Origin: Mobula hypostoma | Taxonomy: Eukaryota | DNA length: 64,000 bases | Direction: 5' to 3' | Assembly (NCBI RefSeq): GCF_963921235.1 | Contig: NC_086097.1 | Span: 90,770,001 to 90,834,000 of the forward strand | In this document: positions 6,482 to 64,000 of the stretch, piece by piece | Layout: each line of letters begins with the position of its first letter | Position numbering within the stretch: the first letter of the stretch is position 1 | The notes under the pieces: generated by a model | Seen by the model: the letters and a program-made list of their open reading frames with translations, nothing else | Database searches by the model: none | Told to the model about the DNA's origin: nothing | Made by a program: the position numbers and the translations under genes

Positions 6482-9340
6482 TTAATAATCCCTTAGACCA
6501 GGCTCCAACTCAGCAAACTTCATAGTGGCCAAAAACACTGATGAATTGCGACCAATGTAACCTCTCATTTGGTTTTGTCCCGGACCACAATAACAAGGGT
6601 CGTCCCATTCCGACTCAGTTTTCTCTCGCAAGGGCTTAGTAGGAGGGGGACGGGTATTGACCGCAGAGTTATTGCAAAACTTCCTGCAGTACCCCACCAT
6701 CTCCAAAAGCCTTCTGAGGGCCGTCTTGTCTGTCGGGGTTGGGAGGTCAGCGATAGCCTGCACTGTAGCTTGCATCACTGCCAGCTGCCCCTGTGTCACC
6801 ACAATTCCCAGGTAAGTGACATTCGTGTGGCCGAATTCATTTGTTCCAAGGCTCACTATCACGCTGGCTTCAGACAGCCGTGTTAAATTGCCAATACACA
6901 CCTCTGTGTTCATCAGCCCTTTAGTCACTGAATTACTCAAAAAATATGGGTGTTGTTTGCTTGGCCGCCCTATTGTAACAGACATAACCCAACGTCCCAG
7001 TTCTTTGCATTTCCTCGGGACAATCAAACACATAGGTGCGAGTCGTTTAATTACTCCTTCTAAAGATTCGCTTTGTTCGGGGATTAAGGGAGAGACCTTA
7101 TCAGTAGACCTGGCCAAAACAATAGCCTTCTCCCATCTGACCGATCCCATCCTAATCTTTTCAAAATGGTTTTTTCCTCTTATCAAGGGGCCCCTAGCTT
7201 CATTGATTTCCACGCTAACACCGACTAGGTTTGTTAGTATATCAAAAGCCGGTGACCGTCTCAGTTCGCGTCGGTCATGATCAATAACATTCTTCCCCCT
7301 GGGCAGCCGGTAACTCTCTTTCATGATTCCACCAACTGTTTCCTCCAGCACCGCAAAATGTCCACCGGGGGGTACCTCGTGGGCCATGTTAAAAACCTCA
7401 TCCCCATAACTCTTTTGCACCACCCCCCACTCCTCATCTGCGGATGCTGTACTTGATTTCCCTTTCTTCCTTAGCACTTCCTCATCCGCACAATAGCCTA
7501 CTAGTTCCCTTGTCAAGGCTGTGTCAGAGAGAGCTGTCTCGGCCAAAACCATCAGCCCCTCGTCTCGCTCCTGCGTCTGCACAAATTCTTTCCTGGCTAC
7601 TGCTACGTCCGTCCCAGCTCCCTCACTACCTCTTATCTCACTACACCCTGTCTCATACAAGGTTGGCAGAAATGTTTCAGCCAAATTCACCATCGCGGGC
7701 GGGGCCTCCATGCTGGCAGGCTGACCCGTCAATCTCACGACTGGGAACACGATTCCTCCGGCGATGTCATTACCGAGCAAGACTTCCACGTCTTTCATCG
7801 GTAATTCGGACCTCACCCCGATCGTGACTAGTCCAGAGACCAGGTTGCTCTGTAAATGTATCTGGTGCAAAGGGACTGACTCTGTCCCTTCCCCAACACC
7901 TTTGACCTCTACCTCCCCAGTCTGGGTCTCTGAGCTAAACTCTAATACACTCTTCAGTATTAGTGACTGACACGCTCCCGTGTCTCTCCAGATCCGCACT
8001 GGAACTGGTTTTAACCTCTTTTTCACTGACACCAGTCCGGCCGAGATAAACCTCTCGCGCCCTTCCTGGACTTTTTCAGACCTGTCCTTCCCTAGCGGTT
8101 CGCTTAACAGCTCAATACAGCCATTCAAAATTTCCGCTTTTCCTTTCCCCGTCTCCTTCCTTGGGGCAAAGCACCTGGACGCAAAGTGTCCGACTTTCCC
8201 ACAATTATAACAGACGACTCCAGGAGACTTCCCACCAGACTGCTCCCGGTCTACCTTATCCTTTTCACTAGTCCCCGGCTTACTTTCTGACTTTTCCGGC
8301 GGACTCTCCCCGCCGTCCTGACTACCCTTCTGGTAGCCTTTACTCGGGGCAACCTTCATTTTATGCGTCAACGCATACTCATCCGCTAACTTAGCAGTTG
8401 CGGCTAACGTGGCTGCCTCTTTCTCATCGAGGTAGGGTCTCATACCCTCAGGGACACAACCTTTAAACTGCTCAATCAGAACCAGTTGCAGCAGTCTGTC
8501 ATAATCCCCCTCTACCCCTTTCGAGGCGCACCAACGCTCACAATATGTTTGCATCTCACGAGCAAACTCCAAATACGTGCGGTCCCACCGCTTCCTCGCA
8601 TTCCGGAACCTCTGCCGGTATGCCTCCGGGACCAACTCATAAATCCTGAGGATGGCCTCCTTCACCACCTCATACTTCTGGGCATCTTCCGCGGATAAAG
8701 CGGAGTAAGCTTGTTGGGCTTTCCCTTTTAGTACACTTTGAAGTAAAACAACCCACTTATCCCTCGGCCAGTCCTGACTTATAGCTACTTTTTCGAAGTG
8801 GAGAAAGTACCGATCCACATCGGTATCGTCAAATGGGGGAACCAGCCTAACCTCCTGGGTCGCCCGGAACCCTCCACCTTGGTTCGGCACGAGCTCCTGC
8901 TCGGCCCTTATCTTTAACTTCTCCAGCTCAAATTCCCTTTCCCTCTGTTTCTCCTCTCTCTCCAACTGTCTTTCTCTCTCTTGCCTTTCTACCTCTTTCT
9001 CTCTCTCCCGCCTTTCTAACTCTCTCTCCTGCCTTTCTAACTGCTTCTCTTCGTGTTCTAACTGCCGTACCCGGAACTCGTGCTCGAGTCTCAGTTTTTC
9101 AAGCTGTACCTGTACCGCGTCTCCAGCAGGTTTTTCAATAGACACCTCCCCCAGCTCACCTTGGGGAAACACACCTTTAGATACATAGTGCTCTACAATA
9201 GCTCTGTGTATCTCCTCTCTCCTCATTGTCGACTTCACCTTAGCAAGATTCACCCGTTTTGCCACAGCTATCAATTCCGATTTCCTGGCATCCTCTAATG
9301 CCTCCAAGGTCGGCGCCTTTATAAATTCCTCAACCTCCAT
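6482..9340 (-). CDS. 952-aa Gag-protease polyprotein with degenerate integrase-N and RT remnants
   Basis: E/R-rich coiled coil, SCAN-related capsid (PEAYRQRFR...LVLIEQF), CCHC knuckle CYNCGKVGHFASRC, aspartic protease RDTGA...LLGND. Then integrase Zn-region relic AHEVPPGGHF, followed by RT relics KQHPY, VCIGNL (YxDD position), VTYLG and MVGYCRKFC. Confidence 0.9.
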   Translation of the reverse strand: MEVEEFIKAPTLEALEDARKSELIAVAKRVNLAKVKSTMRREEIHRAIVEHYVSKGVFPQGELGEVSIEKPAGDAVQVQLEKLRLEHEFRVRQLEHEEKQLERQERELERREREKEVERQERERQLEREEKQREREFELEKLKIRAEQELVPNQGGGFRATQEVRLVPPFDDTDVDRYFLHFEKVAISQDWPRDKWVVLLQSVLKGKAQQAYSALSAEDAQKYEVVKEAILRIYELVPEAYRQRFRNARKRWDRTYLEFAREMQTYCERWCASKGVEGDYDRLLQLVLIEQFKGCVPEGMRPYLDEKEAATLAATAKLADEYALTHKMKVAPSKGYQKGSQDGGESPPEKSESKPGTSEKDKVDREQSGGKSPGVVCYNCGKVGHFASRCFAPRKETGKGKAEILNGCIELLSEPLGKDRSEKVQEGRERFISAGLVSVKKRLKPVPVRIWRDTGACQSLILKSVLEFSSETQTGEVEVKGVGEGTESVPLHQIHLQSNLVSGLVTIGVRSELPMKDVEVLLGNDIAGGIVFPVVRLTGQPASMEAPPAMVNLAETFLPTLYETGCSEIRGSEGAGTDVAVARKEFVQTQERDEGLMVLAETALSDTALTRELVGYCADEEVLRKKGKSSTASADEEWGVVQKSYGDEVFNMAHEVPPGGHFAVLEETVGGIMKESYRLPRGKNVIDHDRRELRRSPAFDILTNLVGVSVEINEARGPLIRGKNHFEKIRMGSVRWEKAIVLARSTDKVSPLIPEQSESLEGVIKRLAPMCLIVPRKCKELGRWVMSVTIGRPSKQHPYFLSNSVTKGLMNTEVCIGNLTRLSEASVIVSLGTNEFGHTNVTYLGIVVTQGQLAVMQATVQAIADLPTPTDKTALRRLLEMVGYCRKFCNNSAVNTRPPPTKPLREKTESEWDDPCYCGPGQNQMRGYIGRNSSVFLATMKFAELEPGLRDY

Positions 9341-9416
9341 TTCTGCTGTTTGTCTTTTCTTTCTTTCGGGAATTTTAACCCAATCAATTTACTCCGTCCC
9401 AAATTTAGCGTTCAAA

Positions 9417-12843: not shown

Positions 12844-15800
12844 GAAACATAGAAACATAGAAACATAGAAAATAGGTGCAGGAGGAGGCCATTCGGCCCT
12901 TCGAGCCTGCACCGCCATTTATTATGATCATGGCTGATCATCCAACTCAGAACCCCACCCCAGCCTTCCCTCCATACCCCCTGACCCCCGTAGTCACAAG
13001 GGCCATATCTAACTCCCTCTTAAATATAGCCAATGAACTGGCCTCAACTGTTTCCTGTGGCAGAGAATTCCACAGATTCACCACTCTCCGTGTGAAGAAG
13101 TTTTTCCTAATCTCGGTCCTAAAAGGCTTCCCCTCTATCCTCAAACTGTGGCCCCTCGTTCTGGACTTCCCCAACATCGGGAACAATCTTCCTGCGTCTA
13201 GCCTGTCCAATCCCTTTAGGATTTTATACGTTTCAATCAGATCCCCCCTCAATCTTCTAAATTCCAATGAGTACAAGCCCAGTTCATCCAATCTTTCTTC
13301 ATATGAAAGTCCTGCCATCCCAGGAATCAATCTGGTGAACCTTCTTTGTACTCCCTCTATGGCAAGGATGTCTTTCCTCAGATTAGGGGACCAAAGCTGC
13401 ACACAATACTCCAGGTGTGGTCTCACCAAGGCCTTGTACAACTGCAGTAGTACCTCCCTGCCCCTGTACTCGAATCCTCTTGCTATAAATGCCAGCATAC
13501 CATTCGCTTTTTCACCGCCTGCTGTACCTACATGCCCACTTTCAATGACTGGTGTATAATGACACCTAGGTCTCATTGCACCTCCCCTTTTCCTAATTGG
13601 CCACCATTCAGATAATAATCTGTTTTCCTATTTTTGCCACCAAAGTGGATAACTTCACATTTATCCACATTAAATTGCATCTGCCATGAATTTGCCCACT
13701 CACTCACCCAACCTATCCAAGTCACCCTGCATCCTCTTAGCATCCTCCTCACAGCTAACACTGCCACCCAGCTTCGTGTCATCCGCAAACTTGGAGATGC
13801 TGCATTCAATTCCCTCATCCAAGTCATTAATATATATTGTAAACAACTGGGGTCCCAGCCCTGAGCCTTGCGGTACCCCACTAGTCACCGCCTGCCATTC
13901 TGAAAAGATCCCGTTTATTCCCACTCTTTGCTTCCTGTCTGCTAACCAATTCTCCACCCACATCAATACCTTACCCCCAATACCGTGTGCTTTAAGTTTG
14001 CACACTAATCTCTTGTGTGGGACCTTGTCAAAAGCCTTTTGAAAATCCAGATATACCACGTCCACTGGTTCTCCCCTATCCACTCTACTAGTTACATCCT
14101 CAAAAAATTCTGTGAGATTCGTCAGACATGATTTTCCTTTCACAAATCCATGCTGACTTTGTCCGATCATTTCACCGCTTTCCAAATGTGCTGTTATCAC
14201 ATCCTTGATAACTGACTCCAGCAGTTTCCCCACCACCGACGTTAGGCTAACCAGTCTATAATTCCCCGGTTTCTCTCTCCCTCCCTTTTTAAAAAGTGGG
14301 GTTACATTAGCCACCCTCCAATCCTCAGGAACTAGTCCAGAATCTAAAGAGTTTTGAAAAATTATCACTAATGCATCCACTATTTCTTGGGCTACTTCCT
14401 TAAGCACTCTAGGATGCAGACCATCTGGCCCTGGGGAATTATCTGCCTTCAATCCCTTCAATTTACCTAACACCACTTCCCTACTAACATGTATTTCACT
14501 CAGTTCCTCCATCTCACTGGACCCTCTGTCCCCTACTATTTCTGGAAGATTATTTATGTCCTCCTTAGTGAAGACAGAACCAAAGTAATTATTCAATTGG
14601 TCTGCCATGTCCTTGCTCCCCATAATCAATTCACCTGTTTCTGTCTGCAGGGGACCTACATTTGTCTTTACCAGTCTTTTCCTTTTTACATATCTATAAA
14701 AGCTTTTACAGTCTGTTTTTATGTTCCCTGCCAGTTTTCTCTCATAATCTTTTTTCCCCTTCCTAATTAAGCCCTTTGTCCTCCTCTCCTGAACTCTGAA
14801 TTTCTCCCAGTCCTCAGGTGAGCCACTTTCTCTGGCTAATTTGTATGCTTCTTCTTTGGAATTGATACTATCCCTAATTTCTCTTGTCAGCCACGGGTGC
14901 ACTACCTTCCTTGATTTATTCTTTTGCCAAACTGGGATGAACAATTGTTGTAGTTCATCCATGCAACCTTTAAATGCTCGCCATTGCATATCCACCGTCA
15001 ATCCTTTAAGTGTCATTTGCCAGTCTATCTTAGCTAATTCACGTCTCATACCTTCAAAGTTACCCCTCTTTAAGTTCAGAACCTTTGCTTCTGAATTAAC
15101 TATGTCACTCTCCATATTAATGAAGAATTCCACCATATTATGATCACTCTTACCCAAGGGGCCTCTCACGACAAGATCGCTAATTAACCCTTCCTCATTG
15201 CTCAAAACCCAGTCCAGAATAGCCTGCTCTCTAGTTGGTTCCTCGACATGTTGGTTCAAAAAACCATCCCGCATACATTCCAAGAAATCCTCTTCCTCAA
15301 CACCTTTACCAATTTGGTTCACCCAATCTACATGTAGATTGAAGTCACCCATTATAACTGCTGTTCCTTTATTGCACACATTTCTAATTTCCTGTTTAAT
15401 ACCATCTCCGACCTCACTACTACTGTTAGGTGGCCTGTACACAACTCCCACCAGCGTCTTCTGCCCCTTAGTGTTACGCAGCTCTACCCATATCGATTCC
15501 ACATCTTCCCGGCTTATGTCCTTCCTTTCTATTGCGTTAATCTCTTCTTTAACCAGCAACGCCACCCCACCTCCCCTTCCTTCATGTCTATCCCTCCTGA
15601 ATATTGAATATCCCTGAACGCTGAGCTCCCATCCCTGGTCACCCTGGAGCCATGTCTCTGTGATCCCAACTATATCATAATCATTAATAACAATCTGCAC
15701 TTTCAATTCATCCACCTTATTACGAATGCTCCTTGCATTGACACACAAAGCCTTCAGGCGCTCTTTTACAACTCTCTTAGCCCTTATACAATTATGTTGA

Positions 15801-16181
15801 AAAGTGGCCCTTTTTAATGCTTGCCCTGGATTTGTTGGCCTGCCACTTTTACTTTTCTCCTTTGTACTTTTTGCCTCTACCCTCACTTTACACCCCTCTG
15901 TCTCTCTGCACTGGTTCCCATCCCCCTGTTGTGAACTAATCTCCTCACGCCTAGCCTCTTTAATTTTATTCCCACCCCCCAACCATTCTAGTTTAAAGTC
16001 ACCTCAGTAGCCCCCGCTAATCTACCTGCCAGGATATTGGTCCCCCTAGGATTCAAGTGTAACCCGTCCTTTTTGTACAGGTCACGCCTGCGCCAAAAGA
16101 GGTCCCAATGATCCAAAAACTTGAATCCCTGCCCCCTGCTCCAATCCCTCAGCCACGCATTTATCCTCCACCTCATCGCAT
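12844..16181 (-). mobile_element. Young 5'-truncated CR1 LINE: ORF1 C-terminus, nearly intact ORF2 and 3' (TTTCTATG)n tail
   Basis: ORF1 SGNH-esterase end (DGLHLN) at 15988-16176; ORF2 endonuclease plus RT; 8-bp terminal repeats at 12844-12870. Confidence 0.95.
12947..15997 (-). pseudogene. CR1 ORF2 (APE endonuclease + reverse transcriptase), with frameshifts near 13700 and 13510
   Basis: [51 protein letters not shown] 4-bp duplication in CACTCACTCAC near 13700 breaks the frame. Confidence 0.9.
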
Positions 16182-16489
16182 TGGAGAGGAGGCATTGGTG
16201 ATTTTTTTTTTACCTAAGTCTTTGTGAAGGCAGAGGTCAGCTTGATTTGATGAACAGGTAGTGTCAGATCTTTTCTTCAGATTTGATATTAAACTAGAGT
16301 GACAGGGTGAATGATTGTAAATCTATGGCCTTACGTTACTTCAAGCTCACGTACCTCAGAGATGACAATGGATGCTTTCTTCTGTTACAATTTATTACCT
16401 ATTGCTGTGCAAAGTTGTTTCACCTTAAGGAAATTATGACCGTATCCAAAAATATGCAAATGTAGTTGATGCAAATAAAGAAGTATTTT

Positions 16490-18546: not shown

Positions 18547-21500
18547 GTGATGAGCGTCCTTGATGAGGATGGTTTGGACCCAAATGCTGGAGCATCCAAG
18601 GCTAGGATTGAGACACGGAATAAAACTGGATCGAGAACTGAGCACAGAACAAAACTCCAGACGATATCTCTGGTTGGGCTTATGACTGAGCACTGAGGCT
18701 CTGTTTAGGTGTTGTTTAAATATTCAGTTCTTGGCACCCAAAACATGTTTGCCAATTAGCGGGATGGCCTGAATCTTTAAACAGGTCTTGACAGCTATCC
18801 ATATTCCGGAGAGCTAGAGTGTCTAAACCCCGGAAGCTGGCGTGATTGGGTGCATGATTTAACAGGATCCTCTCCTCTACGGCCTACTCCTAATGGCCCT
18901 GGCTGATCAGAGAGAAAATGATGATGGTAGTCTTGGATGAGAACTGGATCCAAGATGACCCAGCACCATTCCTCAGTCTGATCGCATGGATGAACTAGAA
19001 CAATTGTTCATCCCAGTTTGGCAAAAGAATAAATCAGGGAAGGTAGTGCACCGGTGGCTGACAAGGGAAATTAGGGATAGTATCAATTCCAAAGAAGAAG
19101 CATACAAATTAGCCAGAAAAAGTGGCTCACCTGAGGACTGGGAGAAATTCAGAGTTCAGCAGAGGAGGACCAAGGGCTTAATTAGGAAGGGGAAAAAAGA
19201 TTATGAGAGAAAACTGGCAGAGAACATAAAAACGGACTGTAAAAGCTTTTATAGATATGTAAAAAGGAAAAGACTGGTAAAGACAAATGTAGGTCCCCTG
19301 CAGACAGAAACAGGTGAATTGATTATAGGGAGCAAGGACATGGCAGACCAATTGAAAAATTACTTTGGTTCTGTCTTCACTAAGGAGGACATAAATAATC
19401 TTCCGGAAGTAGTAGGGGACAGAGGGTCCAGTGAGATGGAGGAACTGAGCGAAATACATGTTAGTAGGGAAGTGGTGTTAGGTAAATTGAAGGGATTAAA
19501 GGCAGGTAAATCCCCAGGGCCAGATGGTTTGCATCCCAGAGTGCTTAAGGAAGTAGCCCAAGAAATAGTGGATGCATTAGTGATAATTTTTCAAAACTCT
19601 TTAGATTCTGGACTAGTTCCTGAGGATTGGAGGGTGGCTAATGTAACCCCACTTTTTAAAAAAGGAGGGAGAGAGAAACCGGGGAATTATAGACCGGTTT
19701 GCCTAACATCAGTGATGGGGAAACTGCTAGAGTCAGTTATCAAAGATGTGATAACAGCACATTTGGAAAGAGGTGAAAACATCGGACAAAGTCAGCATGG
19801 ATTTGTGAAAGAAAAATCATGTCTGACGAATCTCATAGAATTTTTTGAGGATGTAACTAGTAGAGTGGATAGGGGAGAACCAGTGGATGTGGTATATTTG
19901 GATTTTCAAAAGGTTTTTGACAAGGTCCCACACAGGAGATTAGTGTGCAAACTTAAAGCACACGGTATTGGGGGTAAGGTATTGATGTGGATAGAGAATT
20001 GGTTGGCAGACAGGAAGCAAAGAGTGGGAATAAACGGGACCTTTTCAGAATGGCAGGCGGTGACTAGTGGGGTACCGCAAGGCTCAGTGCTGGGACCCCA
20101 GTTGTTTACAATATATATTAATGACTCGGATGAGGGAAATAAATGCAGCATCTCCAAGCTTGCGGTGACACGAAGCTGGGCGGCAGTGTTAGCTGTGAGG
20201 AGGATGCTAAAAGGATGCAGGGTGACTTGGATAGGTTAGGGGAGTGGGTAAATTCATGGCAGATGCAATTTAATGTGGATAAATGTGAAGTTATCCACTT
20301 TGGTGGCAAAAATAGGAAAACAGATTATTATCTGAATGGTGGCCGATTAGGAAAAGGGGAGGTGCAACGAGATCTGGGTGTCATTATACACCAGTCATTG
20401 AAAGTGGGCATGCAGGTACAGCAGGCGGTGAAAAAGGCGAATGGTATGCTGGCATTTATAGCAAGAGGATTCGAGTACAGGAGCAGGGAGGTACTACTGC
20501 AGTTGTACAAGGCCTTGGTGAGACCACACCTGGAGTATTGTGCGCAATTTTGGTCCCCTAATCTGAGGAAAGACATCCTTGCCACAGAGGGAGTACAAAG
20601 AAGGTTCACCAGATTGATTCCTGGGATGACAGGACTTTCATATGATGAAAGACTGGATGAACTAGGCTTATACTCATTGGAATTTAGAAGATTGAGGGGG
20701 GATCTGTTTGAAATGTATAAAATCCTAAAGGGATTGGACAGGCTAGATGCAGGAAGATTGTTCCCGATGTTGGGGAAGTCCAGAATGAGGGGCCACAGTT
20801 TGAGGATAAAGGGGAAGCCTTTTAGGACTGAGATTAGGAAAAACTTCTTCACACAGAGAGTGGTGAATCTGTGGAATTCTCTGCCACAGGAAACAGTTGA
20901 GGCCAGTTCATTGACTATATTTAAGAGGGAGTTAGATAAGGCCCTTGTGGCTAAAGGAATCAGAGGGTATGGAGGGAAGGCTGGTACAGGGTTCTGAGTT
21001 GAATGATCAGCCATGATCATACTGAATGGCGGTGCAGGCTTGAGGGGCTGAATGGCCTACTCCTGCACCTATTTTCTATGTTTCTATGTTTCTATGAATC
21101 CTTCCTAGTCCACAAGGAGCTGTCAAACACCCTGAACAGTCTGTGAATCTAAAATTCTTCTCACAGTGAAGACCTGCTCCCCATCGCCAAACCTGGGTAG
21201 CGGCAGGACTGATGGTCGTGGGGCTAACAGACTGGTGTTCACAGGTTTTAATTTGGAAATATGGAAGGTGGGAACTGGGCGTTGGGGAGCTGTAAGGTGT
21301 AAGTCACCAGGTTTCCTTTCCTGAGAATCTTGAAGTGTCCAATGAACTTGGGCACCAATTTCCTAGACTCCACTCGGAGAGACAAATCCTGAGTCAATAG
21401 CCAGGCCCATTGTCCATGCTGCAAACTGGTCCCCGTCTTCTCTTGTGGTTAGCCTTTATTTCAGCCTTCCGGGTAGAGGCCAACAAAATCTCCCTTGCCC

Positions 21501-36789: not shown

Positions 36790-38575
36790 AAGATCAAAAG
36801 ACATAGGAGCCATTCAGCCCATCGAGTCCACTCCACCATTTCATCATGGCTGATCCAGATTCCATTCAATCCCATACATGTGCCCTCTTACCATAACTCT
36901 TGATGCTCCAACCAGTCAGGAATCTATCAACTTCTGCTTTGAATATACCCATGGACTCGTCCTCCACTGCAGTCTGTGGCAGATCATTCTACAGATTCAC
37001 CACTCTTTAGCTAAAATAATTCCTCCTTACCTCTGTGCTAAAAGGTTGCCTCTCAGTTTTGAGGCTGTGCCCTCTAGTTCTGGATACCCCCAACTAGAGG
37101 AAACATTCTCTCCACATGCACCCTATCTAGACTGAAAAACAGTACTTAATAAATTCATCTGCCATTTCATTGTCCTCCATTACTACCTCACCAGCAAAAT
37201 TTTCCAACTCAGTGGGGCCCACAATGTCATAGTGACCAATCTCTAATTACACCCCGAGTTTGTCCACCATATTCCGAATGCTATGAACATTTAAACACAG
37301 CACCTTCCATTTTGCATTCTTCACCCTTTTGAATTTTGCCTCTGTGGTACAATTTAACTCTTTGCTCTGTCTGCTTTTGTACCCAAATTTTGGCTTGTCC
37401 TTCCTAACATTTATGTTACACCCATCATTTGCTTGTAAGCCTGCTGGCTCATCATCAGCCCTATCATACTGGTTCCCATCCCCCTGCCATATTAATTTAA
37501 AGCACTTCCAGCAGCTCTGGCAAACCTGCCCACAAAGATATTGGTCCCCCTCAGATTCAAGTGCAACCTGTCCCTTTTGTACAGGTCACACCTGCCCCAG
37601 AAGAAGTCCCAATGATCCAGAAATCTGAATCCCTGCTTCCTGCTCCAATTCTTCAGCCACGCATTTATCTGCTACCTTATTCTATTCCTATCCTCACTGT
37701 CGCATGGCACAGGCAGTAATCCCGAGATTACTACCCTTGAGGTCATATCACGGTTAGGTTCGACTCCTCATTTTCTTGTAATTTCCTTTTTCCCATGATT
37801 TGCCTGGCTCCTTGATTAAGGTACCTGATTCTCAACCAAATAGGCAACATAAAAGCTCCCGCTTACATCTACTCAGGGCTGGACCGTCACACCTCAGCCA
37901 GTGTGGTAATGCATGTCTGGGCCGCCGAGAATAGTGGACCGTCTCCTGAGCCAGTGCGGCAATGCACATTCCGGGCCGCCGAGAATAGAGGACTCTAAGT
38001 TGTTTCGATACCTGGGGTTGCTTTGGGAATTCTGTCATTTTCGTGTCCAGCTGGGTGTTGCCAGCCGTTTGCCGCTACTCCAAGTCAAGATATGAATTGT
38101 CTGTCATTGTCTGGTTTTGTCGTAACACGTTCGAGTCCCAGCTTCATGTCCGAGTCCAAGTCCAGGCTCCATTTCCCGAATCCAAGTCCAGGCTCCGTGT
38201 CCAAGTCCAAGTGCAGGCTCCTTGACCAAGTTCCAGGTCCAGGCTCCTCCGGTTTGTTGTCCAACGTTCACGTCCACGTATACATCTAATCCTCACTCTC
38301 TGACTTTCCTTGCAGCTATTCTGCAACGTTAAATGGGGAAGTAAAATTCAATTCAGATTTCAAAGATAATTCTGCTAATGCTACCTACTTGTCGGTGTCC
38401 TGCACATGGGTCCGCCCCCAGTCGCTGATTGTAATAGGTCCTGCTTCTCAGCTTCCTTCCTAACTACCTGTATTCTGTTTTCAGGACCTCCTCCCTTTTC
38501 CTACCTATGTAGTTGGTACCAATACCTACCATGACCTCTGGCTGCTCGCCCTCCCTTTTCAGGATGCTCTGGGTG
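36790..38575 (-). mobile_element. Cluster of CR1 fragments, including an ORF1/ORF2 junction (about 37200-37745 and 38437-38575)
   Basis: ORF1 esterase end (LHLNL..TNIFVGRFA) and endonuclease start KVLCLNVHSIRN; split by a solo LTR. Confidence 0.75.
37746..38436 (+). mobile_element. Decayed solo LTR
   Basis: TATCAC...GTAATA termini (decayed TG..CA), flanks GGTCA/GGTCC; interrupts contiguous CR1 sequence; internal short tandem repeats. Confidence 0.65.
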
Positions 38576-55984: not shown

Positions 55985-58900
55985 GCATGGTTTGTTGCCT
56001 CCCGGGTGTCAGGGTCTGGGATGTCTCTGACTGGGTGCACAACATCCTGGTATGAGAGGGAAAGCAACCAGGAGTTGTGATACATGTTGGCATCAACGAC
56101 ATGGGCAGGAAGAGGGATGAGGTCCTGAAATGTGAGTTTTGGGAACTAGGCAGAAGGCTGAAGAACAGGACCTCAAAGCTGGCGTTCTCAGGACTGCTGC
56201 CAGTTCTACATGATAGTGATGGTAAGAATTGGAGGAGATGGCAGTTGAATGAGTGGCTGAGGAGTTGGTGCAGGGAGCAGGGTTTTAGATTTTTGGTTCA
56301 TTGGGATCTCTTCTGGGGAAGGTGGGACCTGTACAGATTGGATGGGTTGCACCTGAACTCGAGGGGGAGCAATATCCTTGCAGGTAGGTTTGCTAGCATG
56401 GTTTGGGAGGGTTTAGACTAATTTGCAAAGGGGATGGGACTCGGAGTGCTAGAGCAGTGGATGAAGTGCATGGAGTAAAGCCAGATCTAACATATATAGA
56501 GGCTTTGAGGAAAGAGAAGTAGAATAAATAGTGTAAAGGTAGTAAGGCAGAAGAGCTAAAGTGCATGTACTTCAATGCAAGAAGCATCAGGAACAAAGGT
56601 GATGAACTGAGAGCTTGGATACATACATGGAATTATGATGTAGTGGCCATTACAGAGATTTGGCTGGCACCAGGGCAGGAATGGATTCTCAATATTCCTG
56701 GATTTCAGTGCTTTAAAAGGGATGGGGGGGGGAAGGGGAGGAGGGGTGGCATTACTGGTCAAAGATACTATTACAGCTACAGAAAGGGTGGGTAATGTAG
56801 CAGGATCCTCTTTTGAGTCAGTATGGGTGGAAGTCAGGAACAGGAAGGGAGCAGTTACTCTATTGGGAGTATTCTATAGGCCCCCTGGTAGCAATAGAGA
56901 TACCGAGGAGCAGATTGGGAGGCAGGTTTTGGAAAATTTCCAACGGTTTAGACGGGGCAGAGTTTGTTAAGTGTGTCTAGGATGAATTCCTGTCACAGTA
57001 TGTTGACAGGCTGACTAGGGGGAATTCCCTGCTAGATCTAGTATTAGGTAATGAATGGGGTCAGGTCACAGATCTCTCAGTGGGTGAGCATCTGGGGGAC
57101 AGTGACCACCACTCCCTGGCCTTTAGTATTATCATGGAAAAGGATAGGATCAGAGAGGACAGAAAAATTTTTTATTGGAGAAGGGCAAATTATGAGGCTA
57201 TAAGGCTAGAACTTGCGGGTGTGAATTGGGATGATGTTTTTGCAGGGAAATGTACTAATGACATTTGGTCCATGTTTAGGGATCTCTTGCAGGACGTAAG
57301 GGATAAATTTGTCCCGGAGAGGAAGATAAAGAATGGTAAGGTGAAGAAACCATGGGCGACAAGTGAGGTGGAAAATCTATTCAGGTGGAAGAAGGCAGTA
57401 TACGTGAGGTTTAGGAAGCAAGGATCAGATGGGTATATTGAAGAATATAGGGTAGCAAGAAAGGAGCTTAAGAAGGGGCTGAGGAGAGCAGGAAGGGGGC
57501 ATGGGAAGGCCTTGGTGAGTAGGGTAAAGGAAAACCCCAAAGCATTCCTCAATTATGTGAAGAACAAAAGGATGACAAGAGTGAAGGTAGGACCGATTAG
57601 AGATAAAGGAGGCTGTGGAAGTGAGCGAGGTCCTCAATGAATACTTCTCTTCGGTATTCACCAATGAGAGGGAACTTGATGACGGTGAGGACAATATGAG
57701 TGAGGTTGATGTTCTGGATCATGTTGATATTAAGGGTGAGCAGGTGTTGAAGTTGTTAAAATACATTAGGACAGATAGGTCCCCGAGGCCTGACGGAATA
57801 TTCCCCAGGCTGCTTCACGAGGCAAGGGAAGAGACTGCTGAGCCTCTGGCCAGGATCTTTATGTCCTCGTTGTCCATGGGAATGGTACCGGAGGATTGGA
57901 GGGAGGCGAATGTTGTTCCCTTGTTCAAAAAAGGTAGTAGGGATAGTCTGGGTAACTATAGACCAGTGAGCCTTACGTCTGTGGTGGAAAAGCTGTTGGA
58001 AAAGATTCCTAGAGATAGGATCTATGGACACTTAGAGAAACATGGTCTGATTAGGGATAGTCAGCATGGCTTTGTGAAGGGCAGATTGTGTCTAACAAGC
58101 CTGATAGAGTTCTTTGAGGAGGTGACCAGGCATATAGATGAGGGTAGTGCAGTGGATGTGATCTATATGGATTTTAGTAAGGCATTTGACAAGGTTCCAC
58201 ATGGTAGGCTTATTCAGAAAGTCAGAAGGCATGGGATCTAGGGAAGTTTGGCCAGGTGGATTCAGAATTGGCTTGCCTGCAGAAGGCAGAGGGTCGTGGT
58301 GGAGGGAGTACATTCGGATTGGAGTGTTGTGACTAGCAGTGTCCCACAAGAATCGGTTCTGGGACCTCTACTTTTTGTGATTTTCATTAATGACCTGGGT
58401 GTCGGGGTAGAAGGGTAGGTTGACAAGTTTTCAGATGACACAAAGGTTGGTGGTGTTGTGGATAGTGTAGAAGATTGTAGAAGATTGCAGACAGACATTG
58501 ATAGGATTACAGAAATGGCAGATGGAGTTCAACCCAGAGAAATGTGAGGTGGTACACTTTGGAAGGACAAACTCCAAGGCAGAGTACAAAGTAAATGGTA
58601 GGATACTTGGTAGTGTGGAGAGGCAGAGGGATCTTGGGGTACATGTCCACAGATCCCTGAAAGCTGCCTCACAGGTGTTAAGAAAGCTTATGGGATGTTA
58701 GCCTTCATAAGTCGAGGGATAGAGTTTAAGAGTCGCGAGGTAATGATGCAGCTCTATAAAACTCTGGTTAGGCCACACTTGGAATACTGTGTCCAGTTCT
58801 GGTCGCCTCACTATAGGAAGGATGTGGAAGCATTGGAAAGGGTACAGAGGAGATTTACCAGGATGCTGCTTGGTTTAATGGTGGAGGCAGATACACTAGT

Positions 58901-59035: not shown

Positions 59036-60539
59036 CAGACATGACTTGGACAGGCTCACAACATCATACCTGCCAATCTCCAACTGCACTACAAGATCAC
59101 CTATTTTATTCCATATACTGCGTGTATTCATATATAATGCATTCAATCCTGTTTTCATATTTACGCCTTCAGTCCTATATTCATTACCTTTTTTGATTTT
59201 GCCCCCAGTTACACTTCAATTCATCCCACTGCAGTTTTATCCTATCATCTGGCCTGTCCTTCCTGACAGTCTCACCGCATAATGCATTGGCTTGTATACT
59301 GATTGTCCCATCCTCAGCCCAGTTACTCCGGTTCCCACCCCACTGCCATATTCGTTTAAATCCTCCCCAATAGCACTAGCAAACCTGCCCTCGGGTTCAG
59401 GTGTACCTGTCCTTTTTGTACAGGTCGTACCTTCTCCAGAAGAGATCCCAGTGATCCAGAAATGTGAAACCCTAACCCTGCACCACTCCCTCAGCCGTTC
59501 ATTCATCTGTACTCTCATCCTATTCCTGTCCTGATGAGCACGTGTTACTGGGAGTAATTCAGCAATTACTACATTGGAGGTCTTGCTCCTCTGTCTCTTC
59601 CCTAACTTCCTATACTCATTCTACAGGACTTTTTCTTTTCCCCTGCCCTCTTTCTTCCCATGTCCTTGGTGCCAATGTGCATCATGACCTCTGACTGCTG
59701 ACCATCCCTCTTGAGAATCTTCGGCAGCCGCTCTGAAAAATCTTGGACCTTAGCACCTGGGAAGCAGCCCACCATCCTGGTTTCTCTTTCACGGCCACAT
59801 AATCTGCTGTCCGTCCCCCTAACTATTGAGTCTCCTATCACTATCATTCTGCCTGTCTTTACTTTTCCCTGCTGAGCCTCAGAGCCGGCCACGGTGCCAC
59901 TGGCCCGGCTGTTGCTGCCGTTCCCTGATAGGTCATTTCCCCCACACCCACCCCCGGCAGTATCCATAGGGGTATATTTCCTGCTGAGAGAAATAGCCAC
60001 ATGGAAACCTTGCACTGATTTCTTATCCCCCTTACTTCTCCTGGTGGTCACCCATCCACTGTTTGATTCCTGAACTCTGGGTGTGACCATCTCTGCAAGC
60101 ATCTCATCTATTAGGATTTCAGCCTTTCTGATGGTCCGAAGAACATCCAGCTCCAGCCCTATTTCGCTGATGTTGGGTGAACTTCTTTCACCAGAGAGAA
60201 CATTAGGTACCCTAAAATCCCATATCTCACAGCAGAAGCATTTTGTTGCCATAACTACCACCTTGCCTACCCTTGTCATACCTCTAACTTCTCAAACTGA
60301 AGCTCTAGCCTGCTCCTGTTCTTGCCCAAGCCCGCTGAGCCAAATTCTGGCCCCTCTAATAGTCCAACAATGGCCGCTCTGCTTACACCTCACTTCTCTT
60401 TATTGTCCCCTGCCAGATGCCTAAAAAAATTGCAATGATTGCAGCCTGCCAAAAAGTTCCTAAAGGCTCCTAGCTCTTTTTAAACTTTGTGCTGTCACAC
60501 CAATGAACAACCTCTCACGAGATTGCAGCGTGCCAAAAA

Positions 60540-61620: not shown

Positions 61621-62795
61621 AAGGTGGAAAGCAATCACAATAAGTCAAGCAGGCTCATTCAACGCTGAAAGACTGAAATCCAAATCAAATCTGACAGTAC
61701 TTTGTAAAACTCCACAGTGGCCCTGAGGTGAAAACTGTTCTCCTTAATATTCAGTATAGAAATCCTGGGCACATAGATTATGTGATTGTGGAAATAAAGA
61801 CAGTGTGTCTGCAATTATGAGGAGAAACTAGATACGCTGGGTTTGTTTTCTTCGAGAGGTGAGGCTGAGGGAAGAAGTTATATAAAGTTATGAAAGGCAT
61901 AGACAGGGTAGGTACTAGAAAATATTCCCACTTATCAATAATAAGGATATCAATTCTGTCAGGGATAAGAGGTTTAGAAGAGCTCTAAGAATGATTTTTT
62001 TTCACCCAGAGTTCGGTTGGAATCTGGAACACAGTCGAAGGGGGTGATGGGGCCACAGACTCTTACAACATTTAACCAATATGTTGATGAGCACCTGAAA
62101 TACCAAGGTATGGAAGACCATGGAACAAGTGTTGGTAAATTGGATAATGTAACTTAATGGCCGATGTAGATCTGATGGTGTGAAGGGCCTGTCTCTTCAC
62201 TGTACGATATGATTAATGAGTGTGTATAGTCATCAGCTGTATTTGCCCTTGCTTGTTTTGCTAGCTACAACCTTAAAAGACTTGAACATATTGTCAAACA
62301 TGATTTCCCTTTTATATATCAACAATGACTGCCCAACCCCATTATTATTTAAAATTAAAATGTTGCTTGCTTCCCAATTTGATGTAAAATTCAATCAGTA
62401 CATGATCACTATTACTTAAGGGTCCCTTCTCTAGGAGATTATTAACTAAACCTACCCTCTTGCACAATGCTAGTCCTAGTATAGCCTGCTCCACATGTAC
62501 TGGTCTAATAACCATTCGACCATAATAAGAGCCTAAGACATGGGAGCAGAATTAGGCCACCTGGCCCATCAAGTCTGCTCTGCCATTCAATCATGGCTGA
62601 TCCTCTTTTCCTCTTCTCAACCTCCCCATTCCCCAGCCCTTTCCCCATCACCTTTGATGCCATGTCCAATCAAGAACCTATTAATCTCTGCCTTAAATAC
62701 ACCCAATGACCTGCCTCCACAGCTGCATGTGGTAACAAATTCCACAACTTCACCTCCCTTTGGCTAAAGAAATGTCTCCACATCTCTGTTTGAAA

Positions 62796-64000
62796 TAGAA
62801 ACATAGAAACATAGAAAATAGGTGCAGGAGTAGGCCATTCAGCCCTTCGAGCCTGCACCGCCATTTATTATGATCATGGCTGATCATCCAACTCAGAACC
62901 CCGCCCCAGCCTTCCCTCCATACCCCCTGACCCCTGTAGCCACAAGGGCCATATCTAACTCCCTCTTAAACATAGCCAATGAACTGGCCTCAACTGTTTC
63001 CTGTGGCAGAGAATTCCACAGATTCACCACTCTCTGTGTGAAGAAGTTTTTCCCAATCTCGGTCCTAAAAGGCTTCCCCTCTATCCTCAAACTGTGACCC
63101 CTCGTTCTGGACTTCCCCAACATCGGGAATAATCTTCCTGCATCTAGCCTGTCCAATCCCTTTAGGATCTTATACGTTTCAATCAGATCCCCCCTCAATC
63201 TTCTAAATTCCAATGAGTACAAGCCCAGTTCATCCAGTCTTTCTTCATATGAAAGTCCTGCCATCCCAGGAATCAATCTGGTGAACCTTCTTTGTACTCC
63301 CTCTATGGCAAAGATGTCTTTCCTCAGATTAGGGGACCAAAACTGCACACAATGCTCCAGGTGTGGTCTCACCAAGGCCTTGTACAACTGCAGTAGTACC
63401 TCCCTGCTCCTGTACTCGAATCCTCTCGCTATAAATGCCAGCATACCATTCGCCTTTTTCACCACCTGCTGTACCTGCATGCCCACTTTCAATGACTGGT
63501 GTATAATGACACCCAGGTCTCGTTGCACCTCCCCTTTTCCTAATCGGCCACCATTCAGATAATAATCTGTCTTCCTATTTTTGCCACCAAAGTGGATAAC
63601 TTCACATTTATCCACATTAAATTGCATCTGCCATGAGTTTGCCCACTCCCCCAACCTATCCAAGTCACCCTGCATCCTCTTAGCATCCTCCTCACTGCTA
63701 ACACTGCCACCCAGCTTCGTGTCATCTGCAAACTTGGAGATGCTGCATTTAATTCCCTCATCCAAGTCATTAATATATATTGTAAACAACTGGGGTCCCA
63801 GCACTGAGCCTTGCGGTACCCCACTAGTCACCGCCTGCCATTCTGAAAAGGTCCCGTTTATTCCCACTCTTTGCTTCCTGTCTGCTAACCAATTCTCCAC
63901 CCACACCAATACCTTACCCCCAATACCGTGTGCTTTAAGTTTGCACACTAATCTCCTGTGTGGGACCTTGTCAAAAGCCTTTTGAAAATCCAAATATACC
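62796..64000 (-). mobile_element. Young CR1 3' part with an intact RT C-terminal frame (62893-63993), running off the window
   Basis: [25 protein letters not shown]; (TTTCTATG)n tail; near-identical to 12844-14060. Confidence 0.95.

Follow-up and report, generated by a model that had tools for sequence, protein, structure and literature searches.

The CR1 copy in the window and its family

The window, a stretch of 64,000 nucleotides of Mobula hypostoma DNA, contains on its minus strand a 5′-truncated, broken copy of a young family of esterase-type CR1 LINEs (12848..16182), recognized by homology and, at the tail, by direct reading. The copy consists of the end of ORF1, ORF2, a 3′ UTR and a tail. 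From 16182 onward it matches other genomic copies at 98% identity, and because family homology begins at this position the copy retains no more than the final ~64 codons of ORF1, a correction to the original prediction. The preserved ORF1 3′ end (15988..16182) encodes the C-terminus of an SGNH esterase, ending in Leu-Asn-stop, the remainder of ORF1 being missing. At the opposite end, a hairpin-like inverted repeat in the 3′ UTR is followed by the tail (12848..12871), in which three TTTCTATG repeats are directly seen.

Across the ORF1/ORF2 junction the minus strand reads GTG ACT TTA AAC TAG AAT GGT TGG GGG GTG GGA, and ORF1 thus ends in ACT TTA AAC TAG exactly as originally described. The heptamer U_UUA_AAC (15991..15997), the predicted −1 shift site on the basis of its sequence and conservation, indeed lies in the X_XXY_YYZ phase, with the ORF1 stop codon TAG (15988..15990) immediately 3′ of it. 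A TGA located 6 nt 5′ of the heptamer (16004..16006), evident from the sequence and the list of ORFs, closes the −1 frame, which makes a start of ORF2 further upstream impossible. Between its stops the −1 frame spans 767 codons (16003 to 13700), and ORF2 in this frame (13700..15997), delineated by the ORF and by Pfam, comprises a Met-less linker of ~80 codons followed by an APE endonuclease and the first part of the RT. It continues into the 760-codon ORF2 originally noted (15982-13703), with the TTG at 15982 in frame. The first Met, that of MGDFN, is found at 15352-15350, inside the Exo_endo_phos match (residues 100-286 of P0002), in agreement with the claim that no in-frame ATG precedes it. 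The Asn motif (15739-15737) and the Glu motif (15658-15656), which we take to be the catalytic endonuclease residues, both precede this Met, in a region that aligns weakly to the beginning of exonuclease III (E 0.085). Another correction concerns an out-of-frame ATG in strong context, which lies 1 nt past the stop (15984..15986), in the +1 frame, and opens 6 codons here; it would divert re-initiating ribosomes. The G-rich block noticed 5 nt past the heptamer is present, with a conserved core (15971..15980) of G5 (15980-15976, +11..+15 from the heptamer) and GGG (15973-15971, +18..+20), a candidate stimulator that is predicted to be unpaired.

As a further correction, comparison with another copy attributes the end of ORF2 at 13700 to a 4-nt duplication, and this break, together with further stops and a 1-nt deletion downstream, indicates that the copy is dead. 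As the copy in the window is a fossil, the question concerns its family. A single 10-mer match is unremarkable in a window of this size, since 28 of 100 shuffles also have one, and the significance of the match comes from its position and conservation. Elsewhere in the window are two more 5′-truncated copies of the young family, at 18984-21096 (plus strand) and 62795-64000 (minus strand), which are 95-97% identical to the studied copy. Decayed CR1 junctions of older families are found at 37482..37501 (minus strand; older CR1 family, heptamer with 1 mismatch, TAA, 7 nt and G block), at 56412..56438 (plus strand; heptamer with 1 mismatch, TAA and G block, with an endonuclease downstream) and at 59334..59360 (minus strand; exact heptamer and G block, the stop being mutated to GAA). 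A 968-codon open frame at 6482-9388 (minus strand) resembles a Gypsy-type LTR element: it encodes a coiled coil of gag type, a CCHC knuckle and a DTG motif like that of proteases, together with decayed remnants similar to pol.

Thirty copies of the young family, 98-100% identical, have the junction in common. The intact ORF1 product P0001 (copy L011) is a 311-residue SGNH esterase (Lipase_GDSL_2, PF13472, E 8e-17), similar to the ORF1 esterase of ZfL2-1 (4c1b, E 1e-27). The family combines an SGNH esterase ORF1, an ORF2 with APE and RT, a tandem-repeat 3′ tail and 5′ truncation, as in the CR1 group; the CR1 label rests on ORF1 relatives in turkey and turtle and on general CR1 features, the endonuclease tree being built from the loci of this analysis only. 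The closest named ORF1 relative is from devil ray (96%), and further named relatives are from sharks, rays, Xenopus, turkey and turtles, with protein ends only for Xenopus and the turtles. The most divergent lineages (24-37% identity) appear to have invertebrate hosts. Several distant ORF1 proteins (P0074, P0077, P0078, P0091 and others) have an SH3-like domain (PF00018/PF14604) upstream of the esterase. Animal CR1 LINEs were also encountered inside bacterial MAGs (L152-L164, G001-G003) and in one protein labelled Pseudomonas aeruginosa (P0023), in both cases likely as host contamination.

The junctions of 30 young-family loci were surveyed, of which 28 are readable in frame, one was not parsed (L009) and one is fused (L023). 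As the original prediction implied, there is no family-wide ATG upstream of the endonuclease in these 28 of 30 loci: the first Met of the −1 frame is mostly at codon 217, and the closest ATG, 1 nt past the stop, belongs to another frame. An ORF2 AUG that overlaps or adjoins the ORF1 stop, of the SART1 type, is absent in this family. In L023 an extra T in the heptamer lets ORF1 and ORF2 be read through as one frame. Other natural indel fusions of ORF1 and ORF2, yielding esterase-EN(-RT), occur among the proteins (P0090, P0299, P0034, P0295 and P0254). A search for longer proteins gave 5 matches, two of which are esterase-to-EN fusions in order (P0295 and P0299); these were considered as possible hard-wired fused lineages and are instead read as single-copy indels.

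The heptamer and the −1 frame across loci and lineages

Loci L001-L164 were compared with the esterase DGLHL region as anchor, without use of the junction; L165-L201 duplicate L152-L164 and were excluded from the counts. For 143 anchors the DNA extends far enough downstream; within 90 nt the heptamer occurs in exact form at 116 of them and with 1 mismatch at 23, and 4 are worse, compared to a background of 3 in 846 control windows. The first 60 loci came from DNA queries that covered the junction. For loci obtained by protein query only, the heptamer is exact in 70 of 85 and in the slippery phase in 66 of these 70, so that the heptamer and its phase prove to be conserved across junctions, as expected from the original prediction. 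By source, the exact heptamer is present in 30 of 31 young-family and 16 of 27 old-family loci (both via junction-spanning DNA queries), in 49 of 62 loci from the own genome by protein query, in 8 of 10 metagenome loci and in all 13 host-derived contigs in MAGs, the last being mostly one family from one assembly. The 31 metagenome loci include 13 that end before the junction, 8 with a clean TTTAAAC-TAG end and several broken copies that retain the site; one, L089, appears unrelated. In L187, a far more distant esterase LINE, the heptamer is missing and an ATG is present downstream, which gives the trait a boundary. Judged by this conservation, the junction is a real and deeply conserved signal of the recoding type that extends beyond one dead copy. 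The ORF1 stop following the exact heptamer is TAG at 68 and TAA at 38 loci (106 of 116); TGA does not occur.

Codon usage at the junction was compared in 20 natural copies, one per lineage, from ray, bird-like and other animal hosts. Their ORF1 tails have a median pairwise identity of 33% (range 15-85%), and as the copies were hand-picked after the junctions had been seen and are related, the counts do not represent independent events. The base before TTA is T in all 20 representatives, across 9 codons and 9 amino acids. Leu is encoded by TTA in 20 of 20 and Asn by AAC in 19 of 19; at other positions of these tails the shares are 38 of 299 for TTA among Leu codons and 40 of 110 for AAC among Asn codons. 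In contrast, all 25 other conserved columns use at least 2 codons each, with a top share of 0.31-0.88. The free synonymous variation of the Leu-Asn codons that would have counted against the original prediction is thus absent across lineages, while other conserved codons vary. The twentieth representative, L076, ends TCT TTT TTA GCG TAG (Phe-Leu-Ala-stop), which places U_UUU_UUA, the frameshift site of HIV-1, in the same phase; its −1 frame runs Met-less into the endonuclease. In the endonuclease tree, from which L150 was left out as it has no parsable motif, L076 clusters with L081 (U_UUA_AAC) inside the U_UUA_AAC set with moderate support (93/90), and with midpoint rooting the direction of change is not given. 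At the DNA level, L076 is the one locus at which a swap among slippery types is seen.

These observations bear on the explanation that Leu-Asn is kept for the ORF1 protein and G-x-G for ORF2, with codon identity inherited by chance. The lineages are indeed related, and Leu-Asn follows the last predicted esterase helix. Conservation of the protein would nevertheless not account for the synonymous variation in every other conserved codon column of the same set, nor for the invariance of the base before TTA while its amino acid changes. In addition, Leu-Asn stays at the stop though the tail varies in length between 22 and 39 residues, and 9 of 15 lineages would have no start for ORF2. On the sequences compared, the synonymous test largely refutes this explanation, which we regard as the least probable of those considered.

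In the part covered, PMC5009743 counts U_UUA_AAC, G_GGA_AAC and A_AAA_AAC among the heptamers most prone to shifting, and U_UUU_UUA is likewise named there as highly shift-prone. A protein-level survey comprised 150 representatives at 50% identity, 108 of which were scorable while 42 had no scorable tail. With a profile that itself included the Leu-Asn end, a slippery-compatible terminal dipeptide was found in 62 of the 108 proteins (LN 48, GN 11), against 4.3% per position elsewhere, and in 70 of 108 when the penultimate position is counted; the remaining 38 of 108 have no slippery-compatible dipeptide at the end. Read at the protein level, 12 further proteins have Lys-Asn invariant at one position. 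The natural KN-type fusion P0254 runs, again at the protein level, from Thr-Lys-Lys into the endonuclease without a Met, as A_AAA_AAC predicts. No DNA was found for the GN- or KN-ending lineages among 401 genomes, one of which matched, with the already known family only. In viral contigs there were no CR1 relatives apart from one marginal match, and the full motif gave 0 matches.

Where the endonuclease motif was located, its frame is −1 at 61 of 77 loci, +1 at 11 and 0 at 5, counts in which the 33 young-family copies weigh heavily. Among the 61 cases that are free of stops, 57 are −1, across linkers of about 35-110 codons. The −1 frame is closed upstream 3-138 nt before the heptamer in 19 representatives, in 15 of which the −1 path is free of stops over 39-110 codons, the other 4 being not parsable. 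A Met before the first endonuclease motif is absent in 9 of these 15 and present in frame in 6; three of the six Met-bearing lineages are bird-like, with the ATG 2 nt past the stop (3 of 19 representatives). The nearest ATG past the stop occurs, among the representatives, in all three frames.

The finding that speaks most against frameshifting as the sole route is the in-frame Met of 6 of the 15 representatives, and in these lineages re-initiation may operate alongside it. According to this alternative, a separate ORF2 protein is made by termination and re-initiation, either at a nearby ATG, as in the bird-like lineages, or independently of AUG, as proposed for L1, with the G block as a SART1-like coupling element. 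For SART1 and L1 this route is established or has been proposed, and in SART1 it requires an element located downstream (parts of PMC5972666 and PMC3708506); for L1, any sense codon is accepted in place of the ORF2 AUG (PMC1965478, in the portion covered). Besides the linker Met residues, the in-frame ATG 2 nt past the stop in L061, L065, L067 and L062 fits such a route, whereas GTG, TCG or TGG replaces this ATG in other bird-like copies and the nearest ATG in the family of the window, 1 nt past the stop, is out of frame. Re-initiation also leaves unexplained why T_TTA_AAC is invariant at synonymous sites and exchanged for U_UUU_UUA, and why ORF2 is in the −1 frame across linkers of 35-110 codons. 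It is considered improbable as the general route.

Another explanation is that the heptamer and the G block form a different RNA or DNA signal, such as one for splicing, packaging or slippage of a polymerase or the RT that adds a base, and that the fusion or ORF2 arises in this way. Natural fused copies do exist (L023 with its extra T; P0090, P0299, P0034, P0295), slippage of an RT can be promoted by G-rich elements of its template (PMC5737552, in part), and CAG|G or AG|GT occurs near the stop in some lineages. However, according to the same partial source the stimulator of the RT has to lie on the 5′ side of the slippery motif in the template, and here the G block is 3′. The runs are just three bases long, the lineages have no splice-like dinucleotides in common, and no pyrimidine tract is present. 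Nearly all young copies are unfused, which implies that unfused RNA is what transposes and argues against this explanation. Four contig sets compared with L011 contain, among the entries listed, no heptamer indel and no joint across the stop; as the kind of contig is uncertain, this counts neither way. Overall, a signal of this type is very unlikely.

The G block downstream of the heptamer

Past the heptamer, G is found at +11..+15 in 16-18 of the 19 representatives per position and at +18..+20 in 14-16 of 19, against a background G content of 0.31, and the block takes in synonymous positions. A linear motif ~10 nt downstream is thus conserved in both sequence and spacing in these representatives. 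The original prediction regarded the G block as the place of a stimulator; its conserved position agrees with such a role, whereas no hairpin or pairing partner is predicted. In the window, the region downstream of the heptamer folds no better than shuffles (z +0.76). As judged by folding that does not treat pseudoknots explicitly, a conserved stimulatory hairpin 5-9 nt downstream is absent in most of the 20 elements. The outliers are L081, with z −3.15 over 60 nt, and L061, with z −2.27 over 100 nt. In L081, a lineage without the G5 block, an 8-bp hairpin lies 6 nt past the heptamer (L081:1631-1650) in the classical arrangement, possibly a swap of stimulator type. The bird-like L061, L065, L067, L068 and L073 have a hairpin ~27-55 nt past the stop, 3′ of the G block and too distant for a classical stimulator.

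A long-range partner of the G block was rejected after duplex scans of 11 elements, L207 having given no ORF2 match: the best energies are about equal to those of 4 shuffles each, and the positions are not shared. A G-quadruplex was also rejected as a general explanation, a three-tier form being possible in 0 of 19 representatives and a two-tier form in 8 of 19. The chance that the G block acts as a single-stranded, protein-bound stimulator is considered about even on the present analysis. A protein-bound linear stimulator is favoured, as a guess, because the G block lies at the same distance from the shift site as the protein-bound motif described for PRRSV.

Proposed frameshift mechanism and comparison with known systems

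Programmed −1 frameshifting probably yields an esterase-EN-RT fusion in esterase-type CR1 LINEs, a reading that draws on the comparison of sequences and agrees with the fusion originally proposed. Most ribosomes would terminate at the ORF1 stop and release ORF1p. A minority would slip by −1, with tRNA-Leu and tRNA-Asn moving in tandem from UUA AAC to UUU AAA, and would then pass the stop as CUA, giving the junction peptide ...T-L-N-L-E-W... and a predicted esterase-linker-EN-RT product of about 1,300 residues. Slow termination at the adjoining stop would assist the shift. The G block could serve as a single-stranded stimulator, most simply when a protein bound to it, either a host G-run binder or ORF1p, blocks the mRNA entrance of the ribosome. 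Frameshifting would set a low ORF2:ORF1 ratio, as in gag-pol, and as the element has no protease the fusion would likely stay whole. More tentatively, and with somewhat less than an even chance, a retrovirus-style −1 frameshift in CR1 predates the divergence of vertebrates, is stimulated by a protein on the single-stranded G5 and not by an RNA fold, and yields a lipid-esterase-tethered RT.

If this mechanism is correct, it would explain how CR1 elements make their copying enzyme, and the working enzyme would be an ORF1-ORF2 fusion. The translation route of LINE ORF2 is described as unclear (PMC3708506, in part), and CR1 is the dominant retrotransposon in most chordates (bioRxiv 2026.01.13.699120, in part). 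ORF2 annotations that start at the first ATG would lose catalytic endonuclease residues, and 'intact' CR1 copies would currently be miscounted. A large class of −1 frameshift sites in cellular genomes would be added, with a G-rich stimulator that may be new. An ancient, protein-stimulated shift would represent a cellular-genome counterpart of viral trans-activated frameshifting, in the transposons that dominate in birds, reptiles and sharks.

No description of frameshifting at the CR1 junction was found in the literature searched, which included portions of PMC4255032, PMC5006619 and PMC8310308 and the scope of which did not extend to the original CR1 descriptions and Repbase; an earlier mention is possible. 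In the first 300,000 of the 449,034 characters of PMC5009743, CR1 has 0 uses and LINEs are treated under re-initiation; 'frameshift' has 0 uses in the part of PMC3905857 covered, as have overlap, translat, slip and start codon in that of bioRxiv 2026.01.13.699120.

The elements described here resemble chicken CR1, turtle CR1 and zebrafish ZfL2-1 in having an esterase ORF1, an APE-RT ORF2 and a short tandem-repeat tail. The CR1-clade literature, in the parts covered of PMC11835228, PMC2734521, PMC3905857 and bioRxiv 2026.01.13.699120, presents two separate ORFs and gives no route for the translation of ORF2. With L1 and SART1 they have in common a bicistronic LINE RNA and a low ORF2 output; they differ from L1 with its 63-nt spacer and from SART1 with its UAAUG stop-start, and a slippery-heptamer overlap is described for neither in the portions of PMC5972666 and PMC3708506 covered. 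Among LINEs frameshifting has a precedent in TRE5-A and TRE3-A of Dictyostelium, which like CR1 are of the APE type and for which a −1 frameshift is stated to be required for ORF2; they differ in ORF1 and host kingdom, and no G block is described for them in the part of PMC5911963 covered.

Protein-dependent frameshifting is known from PRRSV, in which the −2/−1 frameshift in nsp2 is trans-activated by nsp1beta and PCBP, and the role of an RNA structure is taken by a short linear motif situated 11 nt beyond the shift site on its 3′ side (PMC5009743, in part). The CR1 G5 likewise begins at +11, a resemblance of spacing only: the PRRSV motif is C-rich and that of CR1 G-rich, the shift sites differ, and the CR1 binding protein is hypothetical. 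With the ORF1a/1b junction of coronaviruses and arteriviruses and with retroviral gag-pol, the CR1 junction shares the heptamer, its phase and a short overlap, as well as, by prediction, the fusion of a structural or accessory ORF with a polymerase ORF that lies in the −1 frame. Unlike these viral sites, the predicted site of CR1 belongs to a protease-less, non-LTR element, and in most CR1 lineages a linear G block is found in place of a pseudoknot or hairpin 5-9 nt downstream.
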